Of a DNA stretch of 64,000 nucleotides, positions 10,943-53,851 are shown piece after piece. The notes under the pieces were generated by a model, which was not told the origin of the DNA, ran no database searches, and saw only the letters and a program-made list of their open reading frames with translations. The number at the start of each line of letters is the position of its first letter. The first letter of the stretch is position 1. A program made the position numbers and the translations under genes. This DNA is from an uncultured delta proteobacterium (GTDB taxonomy: Bacteria; Desulfobacterota; Binatia; UBA9968): positions 224,001 through 288,000 of the forward strand of contig CAWJZV010000034.1 in NCBI GenBank assembly GCA_963847445.1. Reading direction: 5' to 3'.

Positions 10943-11335
10943 ATGGCGTCTACCGCAAAGCTGGCGCGGAATACCAGACAATTGGCGATGGTCTGGCAGG
11001 CCATCGAGCATGATCAGTCCCATCCCACTGCCGATCAGGTCTATGACCGGGTGCGGCGCAAACTGCCGAATATCAGTCTCGGCACCGTGTATCGCAACTT
11101 GCAGAAGCTGGTGGCACTAAAAAAGCTGCAAGTCTTGATGCTCGGGCGCTCGCAACATTTCGATCCGCTGGTCAAGCGTCATCAGCATTTTATCTGCGAA
11201 GTTTGCGATCGCGTCTTCGACGTGCTGGTTGAAAGCCAACGGGAGATCCGGCCGGCAAAGCTTCCCGAAGCGGGCTTCACCGTAACCTCGCACCACTCGG
11301 CCTTCTACGGTACCTGCAAGAGCTGCTCTTCCTAG
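10943..11335 (+). CDS. Fur-family repressor (PerR-like)
   Basis: HPTADQVY, ISLGTVYRNL, HQHFICEVC and terminal CKSC. Confidence 0.9.
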   Translation: MASTAKLARNTRQLAMVWQAIEHDQSHPTADQVYDRVRRKLPNISLGTVYRNLQKLVALKKLQVLMLGRSQHFDPLVKRHQHFICEVCDRVFDVLVESQREIRPAKLPEAGFTVTSHHSAFYGTCKSCSS

Positions 11336-42240: not shown

Positions 42241-42741
42241 CTATCGCGATTTCTTCAACATGAAGTCCAAATCTTCAGAGAGCGACTGGAGATCCTCCTC
42301 GTGCGCCACTTCGTCCTGAAGAATTTGCAAAACCATATTGTAAGTGACTGGGTCTTTTGTCTGAGTCGCCTCCAAAAGTTTCTTGTAAAAGCCAATGGCG
42401 CAGCGCTCGCCCTTGATGTTTTGGCTTAGGATAGTCTCGACGAACGGGTCATCGGGCGCGTCGTAGCCGCAACTGGTCACGTCATACCATTTTTTCGGCT
42501 CGGCCACCGGCGTGCCGCCGAGCTGGATGATCCGGGCCGCGACCATGTCGGCGTGACGCAACTCGTCGGTAGCATGTTGCAGCAATTCGGCGATCACCGC
42601 TTCTTTCATCGGACCCTTCACGACCTTGGCGCCCAGCCAGTATTGGTAATAGGCGAGCCACTCATCGGCGAACGCCATATTGAGCAGCTTCAACAGTTGT
42701 TCCACGTCCATGCCGACAATTTCTCTTCCTTTGGTGCCCAT
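42241..42741 (-). CDS. DPS-like (DPSL/thioferritin) ferritin-family protein
   Basis: ADEWLAYYQYW, DELRH, SCGY and ERCAI cysteine pair, DEVAHE. Confidence 0.88.
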   Translation of the reverse strand: MGTKGREIVGMDVEQLLKLLNMAFADEWLAYYQYWLGAKVVKGPMKEAVIAELLQHATDELRHADMVAARIIQLGGTPVAEPKKWYDVTSCGYDAPDDPFVETILSQNIKGERCAIGFYKKLLEATQTKDPVTYNMVLQILQDEVAHEEDLQSLSEDLDFMLKKSR

Positions 42742-42829
42742 AATATTCTTCTCCTGTTTGTTCAATTTTTAGATGCACAACCACCGTGTAATTCCCTTAA
42801 GTATCGGCGATTGATCGCCATCAAGCGAC

Positions 42830-42891
42830 AAGAGCCCGCGCTTCGCCGCAAACGCGAAACGCCGGGCTCTGGGTTCGTGACCGCTGGCCTC
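42830..42891 (-). promoter_or_regulatory. Structured leader element, copy 1 (heptad repeats plus hairpin, no U-tract)
   Basis: AGAGGCC AGCGGTC ACGAACCC AGAGCCCGGCGTTTCGC-loop-GCGAAGCGCGGGCTCT; homologous to 51486-51555. Confidence 0.8.
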
Positions 42892-42907
42892 TTGGTTTAC
42901 TTGACAA

Positions 42908-42923
42908 AGCACTTAGTGTGCCA
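42908..42923 (-). promoter_or_regulatory. Putative sigma54 promoter of the DPSL gene
   Basis: TGGCAC-ACTAA-GTGCT with -24 GG / -12 GC spacing. Confidence 0.6.
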
Positions 42924-46900: not shown

Positions 46901-49118
46901 TTAGAACTTGAAGCTCGCGCTGCCGATGAACGTGCGGCCCGCGCCAGGCAACGACGTGTCCCCGCTGAGACTGTCGAATAGTAATGGTCGTTGGTCAGAT
47001 TGATCGCGTTGACCCGCAATTGGAATATTCTTGTTGAGCTGGTACGCCACCGTCGAATCCCAGCGAACATGATCCGGGACACGGGCGATTGTTTGGCGGC
47101 ATTGTTGTAATCGACAGCCGACATAGGTCGGGCCGCCGCCGATTTGCCATTTTTCGAGAAAGTCGTAGGTGACCCAAACGTTCGCGCTGTGCGTCGGCAC
47201 GTTGGCGAGTTCGTTGCCGATGATGGCGGGGTTGGTGTCGATTTGCGAATCTTCGATATCGAGGTATGTGTAACCGCTAAAGATATTCAAGCCGGGGAGA
47301 AGGCGGCCAGAGAGCCCGAATTCGACACCCTGTGAACGCGTGCTCACCGTCAAGCACATTAGCGTCCGCGGTCGGATCAATCGGATTCGGTGTACACGGG
47401 CATCGGTTTTGTCGATTCGAAATACCGCGCCTTGCAGATTCAGGGCTCCATTGAAGAATTCCAGTTTGCCGCCGATTTCGAAGGTTCTGTTTTTTTCCGG
47501 AGGGGCACCTGTCGGTGTTAGGTGCCAAGGGCATGGCTTCGGCGGAGGGATTGAACGCGGTGCGCATAGGAGAAATAGTAGCTCTGTGACGGGGTCGGGT
47601 GAAAGATCAGACCGCCTCGATAACTCCACATTCGATCTGTCCGACCCAGGTCCGAACGAGCCGTTATCGCGCCAGTGGTATTATGCGTGATCGTGTCAAA
47701 GTCGTTGTCGAAGTAATCCCAACGGACGCCGCCGACGAGATCGAAATACTGGTTTAGCTTGATCTGATCTGCGGCGAAGATGCCGAAACCGAAGGCACTG
47801 CCGTCTGCGCGACTCGATACCGAGCGCGACATTCCCGCGGTACTGGCAACTGATTGTGGTTGGGATTGTTGAGCGTTGTGCCGGAGGCACTCCGACGAAA
47901 GCGTAGTGGTTCGTCGAAGGTCTCCCGCGATACCTCCAGCCCGGATGTGACTGTGTGATTGAAACCGAAGGTGTCGAACTTGGCGGTAAGATCCGTTTGG
48001 TTGCTCAGAATGCTTTCCTAGGTATCGCGCTGCCGGTCGGCTTCCGGTGAACAGGGTCGGGGATGACATTGACGCGTGGCGCTTGGTTTCGTGAATCCCG
48101 GTCGACGTGGCTGTAGCGGAGGGTGTTCCGCAAGGTGAACATATCGTTGAAGCGGTGATCCAACCGCGAGGTGCCGATATTCACCGTTGTTTCTTCGTTG
48201 TCTTCATTGGCAAAGCCATAGAAGTTCTTGCGGTCGATGCGTAACGGACGGCCATTCTACGTACGGAAAACCGTAATCAGGAATATTGTCTTCAGCTTGA
48301 AGCAGGTAGCTCAATGTTAGCTGCGTCGGCGTGCCCAAGCCGAACGCAGATCGACGGCGCAAACCCCAGCCGCTTGCTGCTTCGATCTTGTCGCGTTCCA
48401 CGAACATCGTCTTTGTGGGCCATGAGGTTGATGCGGAAAGCCGCATGGGCAGCCCTGGGGAATCGGTTGGTTGACATCGATGGTGCCGCGCAGGTAGATC
48501 CGTTGCCGCCAACGCTAAAAATGCCGTCGTAGCTCGGGGTCGAGTTGAGGAACTTTGCTGACCTGATTGATCGATGCCGCCGGTGGAGCCACGACCGAAG
48601 TATAGGGAGGACGGTCCTTTTAGAACTTCGACGGATTCGAGATTGAACACATCTCGAAAATAGGAGCCCGGAGTCGCGCACCCCGTCGATGATACATGTC
48701 GTTGCTCGCGTTGTAGCCCGCGCAGCGTCAAGTTGTCGCCTTGAACCGCCGCCTTCGCCTGCACGGAAACGTAATACCAGGCACGTTGCGCAACGCATCG
48801 CGCAAGGTCGCAGCCGGCCTGTTCTTCGATTAATCTTCTGCGGCATCACGGTAATCGACTGCGGCATGTTTTTCAGTGGTACGGGAATCTCGATAGGGAC
48901 GATTGCGGCACTACATAGGGGCTATCTTGATCCTGCACCACCACCGGCGGCAGGGTAATCGGTTCCTCTTTTTTCGGCTCCGCCGCGCCTGCGTGGCTTG
49001 CCAGCGCAAAGCTGAAAGCCATCGCCTTGCCAACTCCTTCACCGGCGGCGAGACAGATTTTTTGGAACGCTGTCTTGTTATTTTTTCTTTCGTTCGCGCG
49101 CTTTTGTTGTCGACTCAT
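46901..49118 (-). CDS. TonB-dependent siderophore receptor (Fiu/PiuA-like), heavily frameshifted
   Basis: [34 protein letters not shown], terminal Phe. Confidence 0.85.
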
Positions 49119-49150
49119 CTCATCCTCCATAACGTTAGGGTTGCTTGATT

Positions 49151-49190
49151 GGCTGGCTTTCCACGTCCGGAGGGCTGGATGGCTGGCTGG
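49151..49190 (-). promoter_or_regulatory. AGCCAGCC direct repeats flanking a small hairpin between hemP and the receptor
   Basis: CCAGCCAGCC-ATCCAGCCC-TCCGGACGTGGA-AAGCCAGCC. Confidence 0.55.
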
Positions 49191-49202
49191 GTCAGAAATC
49201 AT

Positions 49203-50238: not shown

Positions 50239-50648
50239 TTTTTCTGCTCCTTCGGTTTTACCGCGATGGCCATCTTTGCCACGTTGGCGCCGCGGGCGAT
50301 GTCCATGACTTCGACCACCTGGCCGTGCTGAACGCCGTCGTCGGCGTTGATGACGACCAGCATCTCGGCATTCTTCGCAAGTTGCTGGCGCAAAGCTTCA
50401 CCGAGAGCCGCTTTGTCGATCGCTTGCTGGTTGAGAAACAACCGGCCGTCTTTATCGATCGTGATCGCCGCGCTCTCGGCAGGCGCCTGCTGGCCGGACG
50501 CCGCCTTGGGCAGATTGACCGGCATGCCTTTGAACTGGGTCATCGACAAGGTCGAGATCATGAAAAAGACCAGTAGAAAAAAAATCGTGTCGATCATCGG
50601 GATGATCTCGATGCGCGCTTTCTTGATGCTGCGGCGTTGAATGCGCAT
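50235..50648 (-). CDS. exbD: Biopolymer transporter ExbD
   Basis: IIPMIDTIFFLLVFFM, VNLP, INAD. Confidence 0.92.
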   Translation of the reverse strand: MRIQRRSIKKARIEIIPMIDTIFFLLVFFMISTLSMTQFKGMPVNLPKAASGQQAPAESAAITIDKDGRLFLNQQAIDKAALGEALRQQLAKNAEMLVVINADDGVQHGQVVEVMDIARGANVAKMAIAVKPKEQKK

Positions 50649-51256
50649 TAATGCTTCCCCGCATGTTCATGCAGCAACAATTCCAGCGAAGAGCTGAAGT
50701 GCTCCATGCGGTCCATTTCGCGCTCGACCTTGGCGGTGAAGTAGTTGTAGGAGACCAGAGTCAAGATCGCGATCAACAAGCCCGTGGCAGTCGCGATCAG
50801 CGCTTCCGCGACTCCGCCGGTAATGGCGTGGGGTTGCCCCATGCCCGCTTCCGACATGACATCGAAGGAGCCGATCATGCCGACGACGGTGCCGAGCAAT
50901 CCGAGCAGAGGGGCAAGCGTCACGATGGTGTCGAGAATTCCCAGGCGGCTTTTAAGCACGGGAATCTCGGCCTGCGCCAGAGCTTCCATTGCCTTCGCCG
51001 GCGCGGGATTGCGGTGGGCGATACCCGCTGCTAAAACCCGCGCGATTGGCTGGCTGGAGTTCTTGCCCAGGTTTAAAGCTTGTTCGAATTCGCCCTTTTC
51101 GACCAATGATAAGATTTGTTGTAGGACATCTTTCGTTTTCAGTTTGGCCCAAAACACAAACCGTTCGATGGTGAGCGCGAGTGAGATCAAGGAGCAAGCG
51201 AGCAGCGGGATCATGACGATGCCGCCTTTGATGATGATTGCAATAAATGCCGACAT
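50648..51256 (-). CDS. exbB: ExbB/TolQ/MotA proton channel protein
   Basis: APLLGLLGTVVGMI, GVAEALIATATGL. Confidence 0.92.
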   Translation of the reverse strand: MSAFIAIIIKGGIVMIPLLACSLISLALTIERFVFWAKLKTKDVLQQILSLVEKGEFEQALNLGKNSSQPIARVLAAGIAHRNPAPAKAMEALAQAEIPVLKSRLGILDTIVTLAPLLGLLGTVVGMIGSFDVMSEAGMGQPHAITGGVAEALIATATGLLIAILTLVSYNYFTAKVEREMDRMEHFSSSLELLLHEHAGKH

Positions 51257-51258
51257 GA

Positions 51259-51472
51259 CTATTGGACCAGACCCTTTCTTTAGCTCGATGTGACTTTCCG
51301 TTTCACTTAGTTCGTTACTTTCGGCGACGCTTTGCATGGCGAGACCAAGTTCGCGCAGGTCGTCACGGGCGATATGCAGGACGACGCTGCCGTAGTGAAA
51401 ATGGGCGGTGTCCTGGCTGCAATTGCAAAGCGAGACCGACCATCTGCCGTTGGATGATTTGATTCCGTACAT
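51259..51472 (-). CDS. Small Cys/His protein heading the exbB operon
   Basis: GGAGG RBS then MYGIKSSNGRWSVSLCNCSQDTAHFHYG...; a TAG at 51259-51261 lies 2 nt before the exbB ATG, so the apparent fusion to exbB probably reflects an indel. Confidence 0.65.
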
Positions 51473-51485
51473 TTTGACCTCCAAT

Positions 51486-51555
51486 AAAAAAAGAGCCCGA
51501 GGTTCCGCCAACTTTTCGCGGAACGCCGGGCTCTGGATTCTAGATCGCTGGCCGC
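51486..51555 (-). terminator. Structured leader element, copy 2: heptad repeats plus intrinsic terminator before the first RBS
   Basis: AGCGGCC AGCGATC TAGAATCC AGAGCCCGGCGTTCCGC-loop-GCGGAACCTCGGGCTC-TTTTTTT-ATTGGAGG. Confidence 0.85.
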
Positions 51556-51565
51556 TGACTAGGGT

Positions 51566-51618
51566 TGTATATTCAAATCATAATTATTTGTCAATACTAA
51601 TATAAAAATATTAGTATT
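51566..51618 (-). promoter_or_regulatory. Putative sigma70 promoter of the exbB operon with an 11-4-11 inverted repeat at the -35
   Basis: TTGACA-17bp-TATACA; AATACTAATAT-AAAA-ATATTAGTATT at 51593-51618. Confidence 0.7.
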
Positions 51619-51675: not shown

Positions 51676-51897
51676 CTATATATTTCCCAAATCTGCTTCG
51701 GATGCCGCACCATCCTGATTATCGCGGCCCTCGGTACTGAGGGGAATCACTACCCGGCGTTTGCAGCGGCGACACTTGAGCTCCACGCCTTCGGGTACCA
51801 AGCGCGCGAGCAAGCTACCGCAATGGCAGCGGAGCGCATCGCCGTCCTTAGTCACCGTCCCCGCCGTTTCCTGTTCGCCTTGCCTTGGAATACGCAT
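51676..51897 (-). CDS. Com-like (phage Mu Com family) zinc-ribbon protein
   Basis: LRCHCGSLLAR...VELKCRRCKR; ATG immediately follows the FTR1 stop codon. Confidence 0.75.
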   Translation of the reverse strand: MRIPRQGEQETAGTVTKDGDALRCHCGSLLARLVPEGVELKCRRCKRRVVIPLSTEGRDNQDGAASEADLGNI

Positions 51898-53851
51898 TTA
51901 AGCCACTGCCTTATTTCGTTCATGCGCCATCCATAATGAGGTAGCTATAAATATGCCGACCAATAGCCCCTGGGCTGCCAGGGTTTCCATGGTCGGATAG
52001 ATACCCAACAGCGGCACCGCCGGCGGAAAATTGAGCGGCGTCGCCGGAACCCAGCCGGCCGCCTGCAATTGATTGATGCCGGTGCCGGCGAAGATGAAGG
52101 CCATGATGTAGAGCAGTGTGCCGGTGACGCCGAAGAAAGTATTTTAGCGGTAGCGCAGGCCGAGCTTGAAGATCGCAAAGGTAGCCGCGACCAGCGCGAC
52201 CAAGCCCGCGGCGAATCCGCCAAGGATGGCCTGGTGGCTGATTTTCATTCTGTAACCAGAGCGCTTGATAGAAGAGCACGACCTCGAAGGCTTCGCGGTA
52301 GACAGCGAAAAATGAGATGCCGATGAGTCCGAAGATACGTCTGCGTCGAAAGCACGTTTTGCACCTTGTCTTGAATAAATGCATGCCACCGTTTTAGCCT
52401 CGGTCCGGGTGTGCAGCCAATAGCCGACATAGAACAGCGCCGACGCAGCGAAGATCGAAATGAATCCTTCCATGCTTTCACGGTGCTGGCCGCTGAAAGT
52501 CAGCACGGTTTGGGCGGCGAGCCAGGTGAGGAAACCGGCGGCCAACTGCGAGAATCCAGCCGAAATGGATGTAGCGAATCGATTTTGTCGCGCCCATAAC
52601 CCGCAGCATGGCGATGATCGCGGCGAGAATCAGCGCCGCCTCGAGTCCTTCGCGTAAAATGATCAGGGCCGAATTCAAGAATGCGTAATAACCGGAGAAA
52701 TCATCGCTGCTGGCCAACAGCTGTGCCGCCTGGTCGAGCTTGGCTTCGATTTCGCAGCGTGTTGTTTTTGAATCTCCTCGGCGGAAACTCCCTGCCGGAT
52801 CGAATTGCGAAACTGGGTGAACTGGGCCTCGAGAGATCTGTCCCAAGGCCGCATCCTTGGCGAACAGCGTCGGCTCGGCCATCTCGATAGCCGTCAAGGT
52901 AGGCCTCGATGGCTTTTTGGTAAGCTTTTTCCTTATCGCCTTTGCGTATATCTCAGCGGCTTCGCCGAGCAGGGTCGCGGGCGATCAACAATGGATCGGT
53001 CGATTTTTCGTCCAGAAGCCCGCGCCTGAGGTAGGCGAGAATGTCGTTGCTCGGCGCGTTGGGAAAACTCTTCTTGATTTTATCGGATAGCTCGCTCGTC
53101 TGAAGAAGTTGCCAAGGTCGCGACGCCTGCGAGTCGGCCGGCAGCGACTTGCCTTTCAGCCAGGACTCTCCGCGCCGGCTTTGCCGTTCGTCAGCGGGAA
53201 AACGCAGCGCCAAAACATAGAAGGCGACTTGCCAGCGTTGCTCGTCCGGCAGCGCGGCGAAGGAAGCCATCGCCGTTTTGTCGATGCCGAACTGGTCGTG
53301 TTGTAGACTTTAAAAGGCGAGAGTCCGGCCATGAAGTCTGCGTCGGTGAAATTGGCCGGCGGCGGGGTTTTGGGATTCATCGACTCGCGGCCGGGGCCGT
53401 CGCCTTTGCCGCTCTCGCCATGGCACTGAGCGCAATTCTGCGTGTAGACGAGTTTCGCGCCGCTCGAAGTTCGGCAGAGCCTTGGGGTAGGTGACGATAT
53501 TATAGGTTTTGATCAAGCGGTCCTTGATCTGCTGGGCCAATTGCGGCACGGCATCTTCGCCGGTTTTATCTTGTATATGCTTCGCCAGCGCTTGCAGATC
53601 TTTTTCGATGCCCGCTTTATCGCCTTCGGCGGATTTGAGTTGGTTGAACAGCTCCGAGCTGCGCGCCGAGAACTCGCTCATCTCCGATACTCGTCGGCGT
53701 TGACAACTTTCCCGCCTTGCACGGCGTTGCGATAGTCGCCGCCGATGTAATCGATTAGCGCCAGAATTCGCTTGGCTTCGTCACCGGCAGCGAATGCGCC
53801 GGTCGCCGTTAGAATGATCAGCCCAAGGAAGAGGAAGAACCGACTGCACAT
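51898..53851 (-). CDS. FTR1 iron permease fused to a cytochrome c domain (several frameshifts)
   Basis: LIDYIGGDY, CAQCHG, LREGLEA and YREAFE (two RExxE motifs), LGIYPT. Confidence 0.87.

Follow-up and report, generated by a model that had tools for sequence, protein, structure and literature searches.

We find that two leaders in a 64,000-nucleotide (nt) stretch of DNA from an uncultured delta proteobacterium of the class Binatia (assembly GCA_963847445.1, contig CAWJZV010000034.1, positions 224,001 to 288,000; hereafter the window) are members of a conserved structured RNA family that is present across several phyla. Both are read on the minus strand, copy 1 at 51556-51486, ahead of genes for iron uptake, and copy 2 at 42890-42823, ahead of a ferritin-like gene, with 8.7 kb between them. 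The explanation that we favour, and consider rather more probable than its rivals taken together, is that the element is the operator of a small protein related to the phage Mu regulator Com, a 'Com box', and that binding of this protein prevents formation of an inhibitory hairpin (P2), turning the downstream genes on. We infer that the protein binds the RNA, that the binding activates and that it is linked to iron status.

The sequence-only reading of the window had reported that the copies match at 32 of 37 positions, and this is reproduced by blastn-short, which aligns them over 37 nt with five mismatches (E 0.03 against the 7.19-Mb genome). Read directly from the strand, each copy has a 26-nt conserved core near its 5' end, GGCCAGCGAUCUAGAAUCCAGAGCCC in copy 1 (51528-51553) and GGCCAGCGGUCACGAACCCAGAGCCC in copy 2 (42864-42889), the latter also scoring 66 bits with a covariance model; the core pattern of copy 1 is conserved in other genomes and in metagenomes. 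Two CC-A-GAG motifs in copy 1 (51551-51546 and 51536-51531) flank a small hairpin, P1, in which covariation pairs 51546-51544 with 51538-51536 around the loop CUAGA. The hairpin P2 (51534-51492 by folding) resembles an intrinsic terminator: the 3' end of the core supplies its 5' arm, AGAGCCCGG, and the hairpin together with the tract of seven U that had been noted earlier (51492-51486) covers 51486-51534. This tract is followed, also as read before, by GGAGG (51482-51478) and an ATG at 51472, which places the terminator 14 nt ahead of the start codon. The corresponding hairpin of copy 2 (42870-42831; 42823-42870 with its tail) ends in a poor U tract, UGUCGCUU, at 42830-42823, and because of this tract copy 2 is perhaps an inefficient terminator, P2 being less of a terminator there; weak tails of the same kind are seen in other ferritin-type loci (L024, L043, L046 and L057). 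Folding returns the shared lower stem AGAGCCCG/CGGGCUCU in both copies with differing loops, and the compensatory change claimed for the upper stem is present as a C-G to U-A exchange plus a U-A to U.G change. Reading the sequence also gives the four heptamer-like repeats (AGCGGCC AGCGAUC UAGAAUCC AGAGCCC), which are the GAGNCC-like units of the core. Minimum free energies are -37.2 kcal/mol for copy 1 (z -3.3) and -36.4 kcal/mol for copy 2 (z -2.3).

GC-rich hairpins are common after genes and both copies have one, so that an ordinary terminator or repeat with chance similarity has to be considered. We regard it as very improbable indeed, as the genome holds two copies only, the core occurs in dozens of unrelated genomes in constant orientation to the downstream gene, and P1, which lies outside the terminator, covaries. 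A covariance-model search of the 7.19-Mb genome gave two strong matches, at 74.7 and 66 bits, the next best scoring 21 bits, and a fuzzy search allowing up to five substitutions found two sites without mismatches, all others having at least three mismatches and none a hairpin. A repetitive extragenic palindrome or miniature inverted-repeat transposable element, for which many copies in random orientation had been named as the sign, is ruled out by this copy number of two per genome, as is any other dispersed repeat; the copies always point towards a downstream open reading frame (ORF). The statement that the RNA matches no known family also stands, since a scan of the whole window with Rfam 15 returned one tRNA above the gathering threshold and nothing else, and sensitive Rfam 15 scans of both copies, extended to E 10, gave only chance matches far below the gathering score.

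When the region of copy 1 was compared by BLAST with 40 relatives, its 5' part was found in 14 genomes of the same genus, some with two or three copies per contig; among these copies the core is near-invariant and the upper hairpin has diverged freely. An exact scan with the core in IUPAC code, using one genome per species, gave 61 loci with 65 sites, in records titled as Chloroflexota (Anaerolineae, Dehalococcoidia, Thermoflexus), Binatia, Myxococcota, 'delta proteobacterium', Nitrospira, Omnitrophota, Bdellovibrionota and Thermodesulfobacteriota metagenome-assembled genomes. A metagenome scan in which four core positions were left free returned at least 120 stretches with at least 110 unique sites, and covariance model R1 gave 94 matches in 100 of the metagenome loci, among them further copies not caught by the pattern. 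In an R1 scan of 151 genomes of the phylum to which the window belongs, the genome of the window itself was the sole strong match, and the distribution of the family is therefore patchy.

The core is laid out as GGCCNGNG, the small hairpin P1 and then CCAGAGCCC, 26 near-invariant nt in all with the consensus G1 G2 C3 C4 N5 G6 M7 G8 R9 U10 C11 N N G14 A15 A16 Y17 C18 C19 A20 G21 A22 G23 C24 C25 C26. RNAalifold predicts a P1 of three base pairs (8-18, 9-17 and 10-16) plus the long helix P2, whose 5' arm is formed by core positions 20-26. P1 was tested without bias on the metagenome matches, whose search pattern did not constrain positions 9, 10, 16 and 17. Sites were counted as real (supported) on criteria that are independent of P1, namely a P2 with 7/8 pairs or more, or the presence of a Com-like ORF on the upstream side; the resulting counts, 78 supported and 32 unsupported sites, are those among the matches listed. 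It can be seen that positions 9-17 pair in 77/78 supported sites (GC 35, AU 24, GU 16, UA 1, CG 1, the remaining one being AC) and positions 10-16 in all 78 (UA 71, CG 4, UG 2, AU 1), while the unsupported sites pair in 17/32 and 19/32 cases, respectively. A covariation test on the alignment A2, which was fitted to the model and is biased towards its structure, was also positive for P1 and P2 together: 94.3% of cells pair, and the score is 0.336 against 0.161 +/- 0.009 for shuffles, a level attained by 0/500 of them, with slid partners giving no more than 0.096. In more distant families the length and loop of P1 vary, with one long insertion, and GGCCNGNG and CCNGAGCC are invariant. An alternative 5' hairpin (G1-C11, G2-U10, C3-G9, C4-G8) was rejected, being broken by natural variants that keep P1.

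Folded in isolation, the core forms one weak hairpin (1-25, 2-24, 3-23, 4-21 and 6-19, plus P1) of -3.9 and -5.8 kcal/mol with z about 0, and the P2 hairpin reaches about -30 kcal/mol, from which we reason that a factor is needed to hold P2 open. In 71 cores of canonical length the variable positions, 5, 7, 12, 13, 20 and 22, are those left unpaired in this isolated fold; this set is uninformative on P1 because it was filtered for P1 pairing.

The structure that follows the core is not the same in every member. In the genome set, a terminator-type P2, with a lower stem of 7 or 8/8 pairs and a U-rich tail, was found at 59/67 unique sites, and the other 8/67 have no terminator. In the folds of L026, L076, L036 and L140 the Shine-Dalgarno (SD) sequence or AUG of the next gene is base-paired, its partner being either the core or the 3' arm of P2; the fold of L049 is less clear (z -0.1). 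One core joined to two kinds of 'off' structure is the mark of a cis-regulatory element. This bears on the idea that copy 1 instead yields a trans-acting small RNA of about 70 nt ending at the U7 tract, of the RyhB/PrrF type made under iron starvation, with its 5' part as the seed. Copy 1 does have a promoter-like sequence, a conserved 5' part that looks unstructured and a strong terminator, and there are two paralogous copies 8.7 kb apart. However, a start codon lies about 50-190 nt from the start of the core at 61/67 unique sites, where the calls gave a downstream ORF with a ribosome site, members without a terminator, in which SD or AUG is paired, cannot be free-standing, and the Fur-box match at the copy 1 promoter is at background level. 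A near-identical seed across phyla is, moreover, unusual for base-pairing small RNAs. We therefore dropped this reading, on the terminator-less members and the constant linkage to an ORF, and would give it only a slender chance.

A Com-like gene encoding a 73-residue Cys4 zinc-ribbon protein lies just upstream of copy 1 (51676-51897, minus strand; profile hidden Markov model (HMM) search), and the genome has exactly one such gene (E 1.2e-25). It begins at an ATG that comes right after the stop codon of the frame-broken gene for the iron permease FTR1, and because of this position the protein is probably made with the FTR1 operon. Com-like ORFs were detected by a regular expression for the Cys motif and then by an HMM built from 45 sequences; they are about 60 residues long with the motif LRCxCGSLLARLVxxGVE(L/I)KCRRCKR. 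In 102/154 unique instances of the RNA element the end of a same-strand Com-like ORF falls in the interval from -400 to +120 nt relative to the core, with a median of -36, and in 111/154 such an ORF lies within 3 kb. In the reverse direction, the core was found within 200 nt downstream of 22/33 Com-like ORFs and within 1500 nt downstream of 25/33, and it was found upstream or on the opposite strand in 0/33. Two unpublished genomes enter these sets as single rows, G005 (L004) in A1 (58 rows) and A3 (45), its sequence being public as L022, and G360 (L243) among the 33 ORFs; no claim hangs on either. The Com-like protein is encoded in 73/201 genomes sampled from the class of the window, one-contig genomes among them, in 6/151 genomes of the phylum sample, and in 5/5 element-bearing genomes of other phyla (titled Anaerolineaceae, Dehalococcoidia, Thermoflexaceae, Anaerolinea and Nitrospiraceae). 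In G116 and G150, two of the six in the phylum sample, the weak R1 matches are placed downstream of the Com-like gene, at 36 nt and about 1.2 kb respectively, and in Chloroflexota a seemingly tiny upstream ORF proved to be the C-terminal tail of a Com-like ORF. Clustering of ORFs from six-frame translations of the neighbourhoods was too noisy in this GC-rich DNA.

Some loci depart from the usual spacing. In the genus g8 of family f6 (L226, L240 and L246; several one-contig genomes) the core lies about 1.0-1.1 kb downstream of com with one gene between. In L026, L076 and L126 no stop codon ends the Com-like ORF ahead of the core; the ORF continues across it in frame (...RPEVANPEP...) and overlaps the start of the next gene, much as com overlaps mom in Mu. 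In a divergent subfamily (L169:8124-8196, L175:318-391, L164 and L097) the Com-like ORF has a finger of the type CPYC...CRKC and continues into a perfect tandem, GGCCAGAGCCC-GCGA-GGCCAGAGCCC. The core is there read as codons of the ORF tail, with a terminator or start codon behind it.

The protein encoded beside the element is related to phage Com. PHROG 13819 (phrog_13819, 'gpCom control of modification') was matched by 44/45 members of the family, with a best E of 8.3e-6, and PHROG 6417 ('translational regulator') by 38/45. An hhalign comparison of alignment A3 with Mu Com (AF083977, Mu_52) gave a probability of 94.4% and E 8.7e-8 over 33 columns, in which all four Cys line up, and 330 homologous clusters were retrieved from JGI, many of them named 'phage FluMu protein Com'. 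The 45 sequences of A3 share the invariant columns C24, C26, C42 and C45 and have a variable C-terminal tail. To judge by its sequence the protein fits the Com class, with about 60 residues, four Cys forming one predicted zinc finger and a variable tail.

The published account of Com from a Mu-like prophage describes binding to 5'-CC(N)2-3GAG-3' in a short hairpin beside the translation-inhibition structure that contains the mom start codon, weak binding when the motif is in a duplex, and a bipartite motif, NGAGNNCC(N)2-3GAGNNCCNN, from systematic evolution of ligands by exponential enrichment (PMC6483171). The core described here carries CC-A-GAG twice and GAGNCC-like units four times, with a spacer of 1 where the published motif has 2-3 (PMC6483171). 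The two systems share a small Cys4 zinc-finger protein, homologous in the two cases, a gene placed immediately upstream of the regulated gene or overlapping it, and an RNA site, putative here, in a short hairpin with CC...GAG that adjoins or overlaps an inhibitory structure hiding the start signals. They differ in that the genes here are chromosomal, cellular genes of iron or metal acquisition and storage, whereas Mu regulates a phage DNA-modification gene; in that one protein gene would here serve several sites in trans; in the first Cys pair, which is CxC here and CxxC in Mu Com; and in the predicted binding site, where CC-N1-GAG occurs twice around a hairpin in place of CC-N2-3-GAG in a loop. 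The inhibitory structure, too, is mostly an intrinsic terminator here, in contrast to the translational activation of mom, and this implies antitermination of transcription rather than control of translation in most members. A search of viral contigs found only three loci encoding a relative of the Com-like protein. In one of these, L261 (an IMG/VR viral contig, about 1605-1690), the Com-like gene has behind it GAGGCCCAUGAGCCC, with a spacing closer to the published one, and a terminator with a U tract; this locus may connect the chromosomal family with the Com targets of phages.

According to the mechanism that we propose, the core would present two CC-A-GAG half-sites, one on each side of P1, of which the 3' half-site would double as the 5' arm of P2. 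By default P2 would form and the genes would be off, through a strong terminator in copy 1 and through burial of the SD or start codon in other members. The Com-like protein, on binding the core, would keep positions 18-26 out of P2, and with P2 prevented read-through or translation initiation could proceed, an activation as in Mu. A single protein, made from the last gene of the FTR1 iron-permease operon (51897-51676), would act in trans on both copies in the window, that is on the exbB-exbD-tonB-receptor operon, which has its own sigma-70-type promoter, through copy 1, and on the ferritin-like gene, which has a sigma-54-type promoter, through copy 2. Uptake and storage genes would in this way be tied to the com-containing iron-permease operon in a feed-forward gate.

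The sequence-only reading had proposed 'a protein-bound attenuator or riboswitch-like element', and the two halves of that proposal have fared differently: the attenuator now has a candidate protein in the Com-like gene that is adjacent in most instances, and the riboswitch option has been weakened by this same dedicated partner. As a riboswitch the core would be the aptamer for a metabolite or a metal ion, for example Fe(II), the ligand would decide whether P2 forms, and com would merely belong to the same regulon. A core that is near-invariant across phyla and covaries, that is joined to both terminator and SD-sequestering platforms, that in some copies has its own promoter and no adjacent com, and that matches no known RNA family is what one would look for in such an element. 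Against this, the RNA and a gene for a protein of RNA-binding type go together whichever of the two the test starts from, the core repeats the type of motif described for Com (PMC6483171), and the isolated core does not exceed shuffled sequence in stability. Furthermore, in other families the loop and length of P1 are free, or P1 has large insertions, while the CCAGAG flanks are fixed, and this combination fits two protein half-sites better than a compact ligand pocket. We consider a riboswitch unlikely.

It may also be asked whether the Com-like protein binds the element for another purpose, either at the 3' end of the com/FTR1 operon, in autoregulation or for the stability of the com transcript, or as a repressor of the downstream genes. 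The commonest layout, in which the element stands 36 nt past the com stop codon, speaks for this, and because of this layout P2 is also the terminator of the com transcript. However, there are copies that have their own promoters and no com upstream (copies 1 and 2 of the window, the ferritin type and the Chloroflexota type with an operator), and the translational variants pair P2 or the core with the SD or AUG of the downstream gene. Since the default is a strong terminator, P2 being strong without any factor, a repressor would add little and an activator makes regulatory sense. We therefore hold such another purpose to be improbable, and return to the reading of the element as an activating Com box.

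A number of results weigh against the Com-box reading. No Com-like ORF is adjacent in 52/154 instances; most of these lie at the edge of a contig, come second after another copy, or are of the ferritin type with a sigma-54-like promoter or the Chloroflexota type with a palindromic operator. Conversely, 8/33 Com-like ORFs have no recognisable core within 1.5 kb. Searches of Pfam and NCBIfam with the Com-like protein gave no match, a sequence profile search of the PDB had a best E of 0.3, and Foldseek against the PDB, using an AlphaFold2 model, had a best E of about 1, its top rows being zinc-ribbon subunits that are not significant. The model itself is moderately confident (mean predicted local distance difference test score 63.7, with 74-89 for residues 21-50), with a core of three short strands and disordered tails. 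The core has CC-N1-GAG and not the CC-N2-3-GAG of Mu-like Com, and R1, run with filters off on the com-mom region of Mu, scored at best 5 bits (E 0.43); since R1 finds nothing there, the RNA does not belong by sequence to a 'family' with the Mu target. The outer helix of the isolated core (1-25, 2-24, 3-23) has one compensatory case, GAC/GUC at L217 (pair 2-24), these positions having been held fixed in most of the search patterns. Finally, the promoter of copy 1 matches the Fur box at 12/19 positions of the Escherichia coli consensus, and 52 sites in the window score equally; as this is the background of the window, a Fur-box reading of the promoter was dropped.

Antiterminators of the BglG/SacY/LicT family with their ribonucleic antiterminator (RAT) targets, HutP and the ANTAR regulators all use a protein-binding RNA of about 26-30 nt whose 3' part overlaps the 5' arm of an intrinsic terminator, and binding and termination are mutually exclusive in these systems, as we propose for the Com box. 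Their protein folds, RNA sequences and signals are unrelated to those of the Com box, and no Rfam model of such targets was matched; none of the BglG/SacY/LicT, HutP and ANTAR proteins is known to be a Cys4 zinc ribbon. Small riboswitches such as preQ1-I and HMP-PP likewise have a very short conserved domain, part of which also belongs to the terminator stem, and they are found with terminator as well as SD-sequestering platforms; here, by contrast, no Rfam riboswitch was matched and the RNA is coupled to a dedicated protein gene. In the iron-responsive element (IRE) and iron regulatory protein (IRP) system of animals, and with apo-aconitase in bacteria, one RNA-binding protein recognises one RNA motif before genes of iron uptake and storage. 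The likeness to the Com box is a functional analogy only; there is no IRE-type loop here and the protein is not an aconitase. More speculatively, the Com-like Cys4 protein might itself be the iron sensor, the occupancy of its metal site (zinc versus iron, or an oxidisable iron) switching RNA binding, in which case, with the Com box ahead of uptake genes (exbB-tonB, FTR1, porins) and ferritin-like storage genes alike, several phyla would have a bacterial counterpart of IRP/IRE derived from a domesticated phage regulator; we think this doubtful.

Com has so far been seen as a curiosity of phage Mu, with one protein, one mRNA and one gene, and the data indicate that its homologues are common in the chromosomes of soil and sediment lineages, each alongside a conserved RNA box that is in overlap with either a terminator or a helix at the start site. 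In the papers searched we met no account of this RNA, nor of a Com homologue with a part in iron regulation. If the Com-box reading is true, this would be a new family among the few systems of protein-dependent antitermination or activation of translation, would add a post-transcriptional layer over the transcriptional control of iron acquisition, and would provide a function for hundreds of 'hypothetical' proteins of 60 residues. The pair is compact, a domain of about 35 residues and an RNA of 26 nt, and might be useful as a tool, and the one-contig genomes among its members may include cultured strains.

The genes downstream of the element are mostly concerned with metal or iron acquisition. 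In a tabulation across the family, of the kind suggested beforehand, we found exbB-exbD-tonB, porins, DUF6662, FTR1, cupredoxin, multicopper oxidase and ferritin-like genes, and a Pfam search of 20 representative downstream ORFs gave DUF6662, Porin_O_P/BBP2-like porins, DUF6125, acyl-CoA dehydrogenase, HD_5, Cupredoxin_1, FTR1, multicopper oxidase and CCP_MauG, with 7/20 having no Pfam family. The iron link of the RNA family therefore rests on gene content. As to the coordination of iron uptake and storage suggested previously, the element does front iron-related genes here and elsewhere, and the coordination itself is suggested by gene content only.

The operon behind copy 1 had been described as exbBD-tonB-hemP-receptor. 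We find ExbB (PF01618), ExbD and a TonB C-terminal domain after the element, in agreement with this description; the hemP assignment is not supported, as the ORF at 48873-49202 matches no Pfam family, and the receptor is split between frames. The first regulated ORF (50648-51472, minus strand) has a Cys/His-rich N-terminal part that is continuous with ExbB. A 70-residue Cys/His-rich protein of this type (MYGIKSxxGRWSVSLCNCSQDTAHFHYGN...) is the first ORF after exbB-type elements (51262-51472 on the minus strand of the window, L003:1673-1882 and others); it is separate in relatives, continuous with exbB here, has no Pfam family and may be a metal-binding accessory protein. The TonB-dependent receptor (46901-49202, minus strand) is spread over at least three frames, with a Plug domain at 48204-48764 and barrel pieces at 47518-48069 and 46901-47629, and the FTR1 permease (51920-52897, minus strand) is in three pieces in at least three reading frames; the splits are either assembly indels or a sign of pseudogenes. 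After the receptor come piuC-like, DUF3016, PepSY_TM, flavodoxin-like and DUF4198 genes, extending to 43109. The ferritin-like gene after copy 2 lies at 42241-42741 on the minus strand (PF00210, E 2.6e-26).

The promoter region of copy 1, read directly from the minus strand, covers 51566-51618, with a -35 element TTGACA at 51594-51589 and a -10 element of the ATATAC type at about 51573-51566, both of which are kept in the exbB-type loci of relatives. A promoter scan program reports a different pair, TTTATA-18-TATGAT at 51606-51577, and does not list TTGACA with ATATAC. Abutting the -35 element is a perfect 11-bp inverted repeat with a 4-nt gap, AATACTAATAT (51618-51608) and ATATTAGTATT (51603-51593) on the minus strand, which gave rise to a weak chance match to mir-310 in the Rfam scan. 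The repeat (51593-51618) is possibly the operator of some regulator, and relatives have a palindrome, CTAAT...ATTAG, at the equivalent position. Matches to the Fur consensus that are better than that of copy 1, at 13-16/19, were found upstream of com in L033, L095, L126 and L065, the maximum in the 64-kb window being 14. The genome encodes two Fur-family proteins, one of them in the window (10967-11296, plus strand; PF01475, 69 bits).

About 18 nt upstream of the core of copy 2 the minus strand carries TGGCAC (42923-42918), 5 nt and GTGCTT (42912-42907), a sequence spanning 42907-42923 that resembles a sigma-54-type promoter. GGCAC-N5-(G/C)TGCT also precedes the core in all the ferritin-type loci (L024, L043, L046, L057, L201 and L206), and a Sigma54_DBD protein is encoded in the genome. 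The ferritin-like gene appears to be driven from a promoter of the sigma-54 type, which would be unusual for an iron-storage gene. In Chloroflexota, four elements without an adjacent com (L047, L066, L073 and L096) stand behind a conserved palindrome (...GAGAATAGTGAYTCG...TCACAAT...) and upstream of DUF6125 genes, and this palindrome is probably the operator of a metal regulator.

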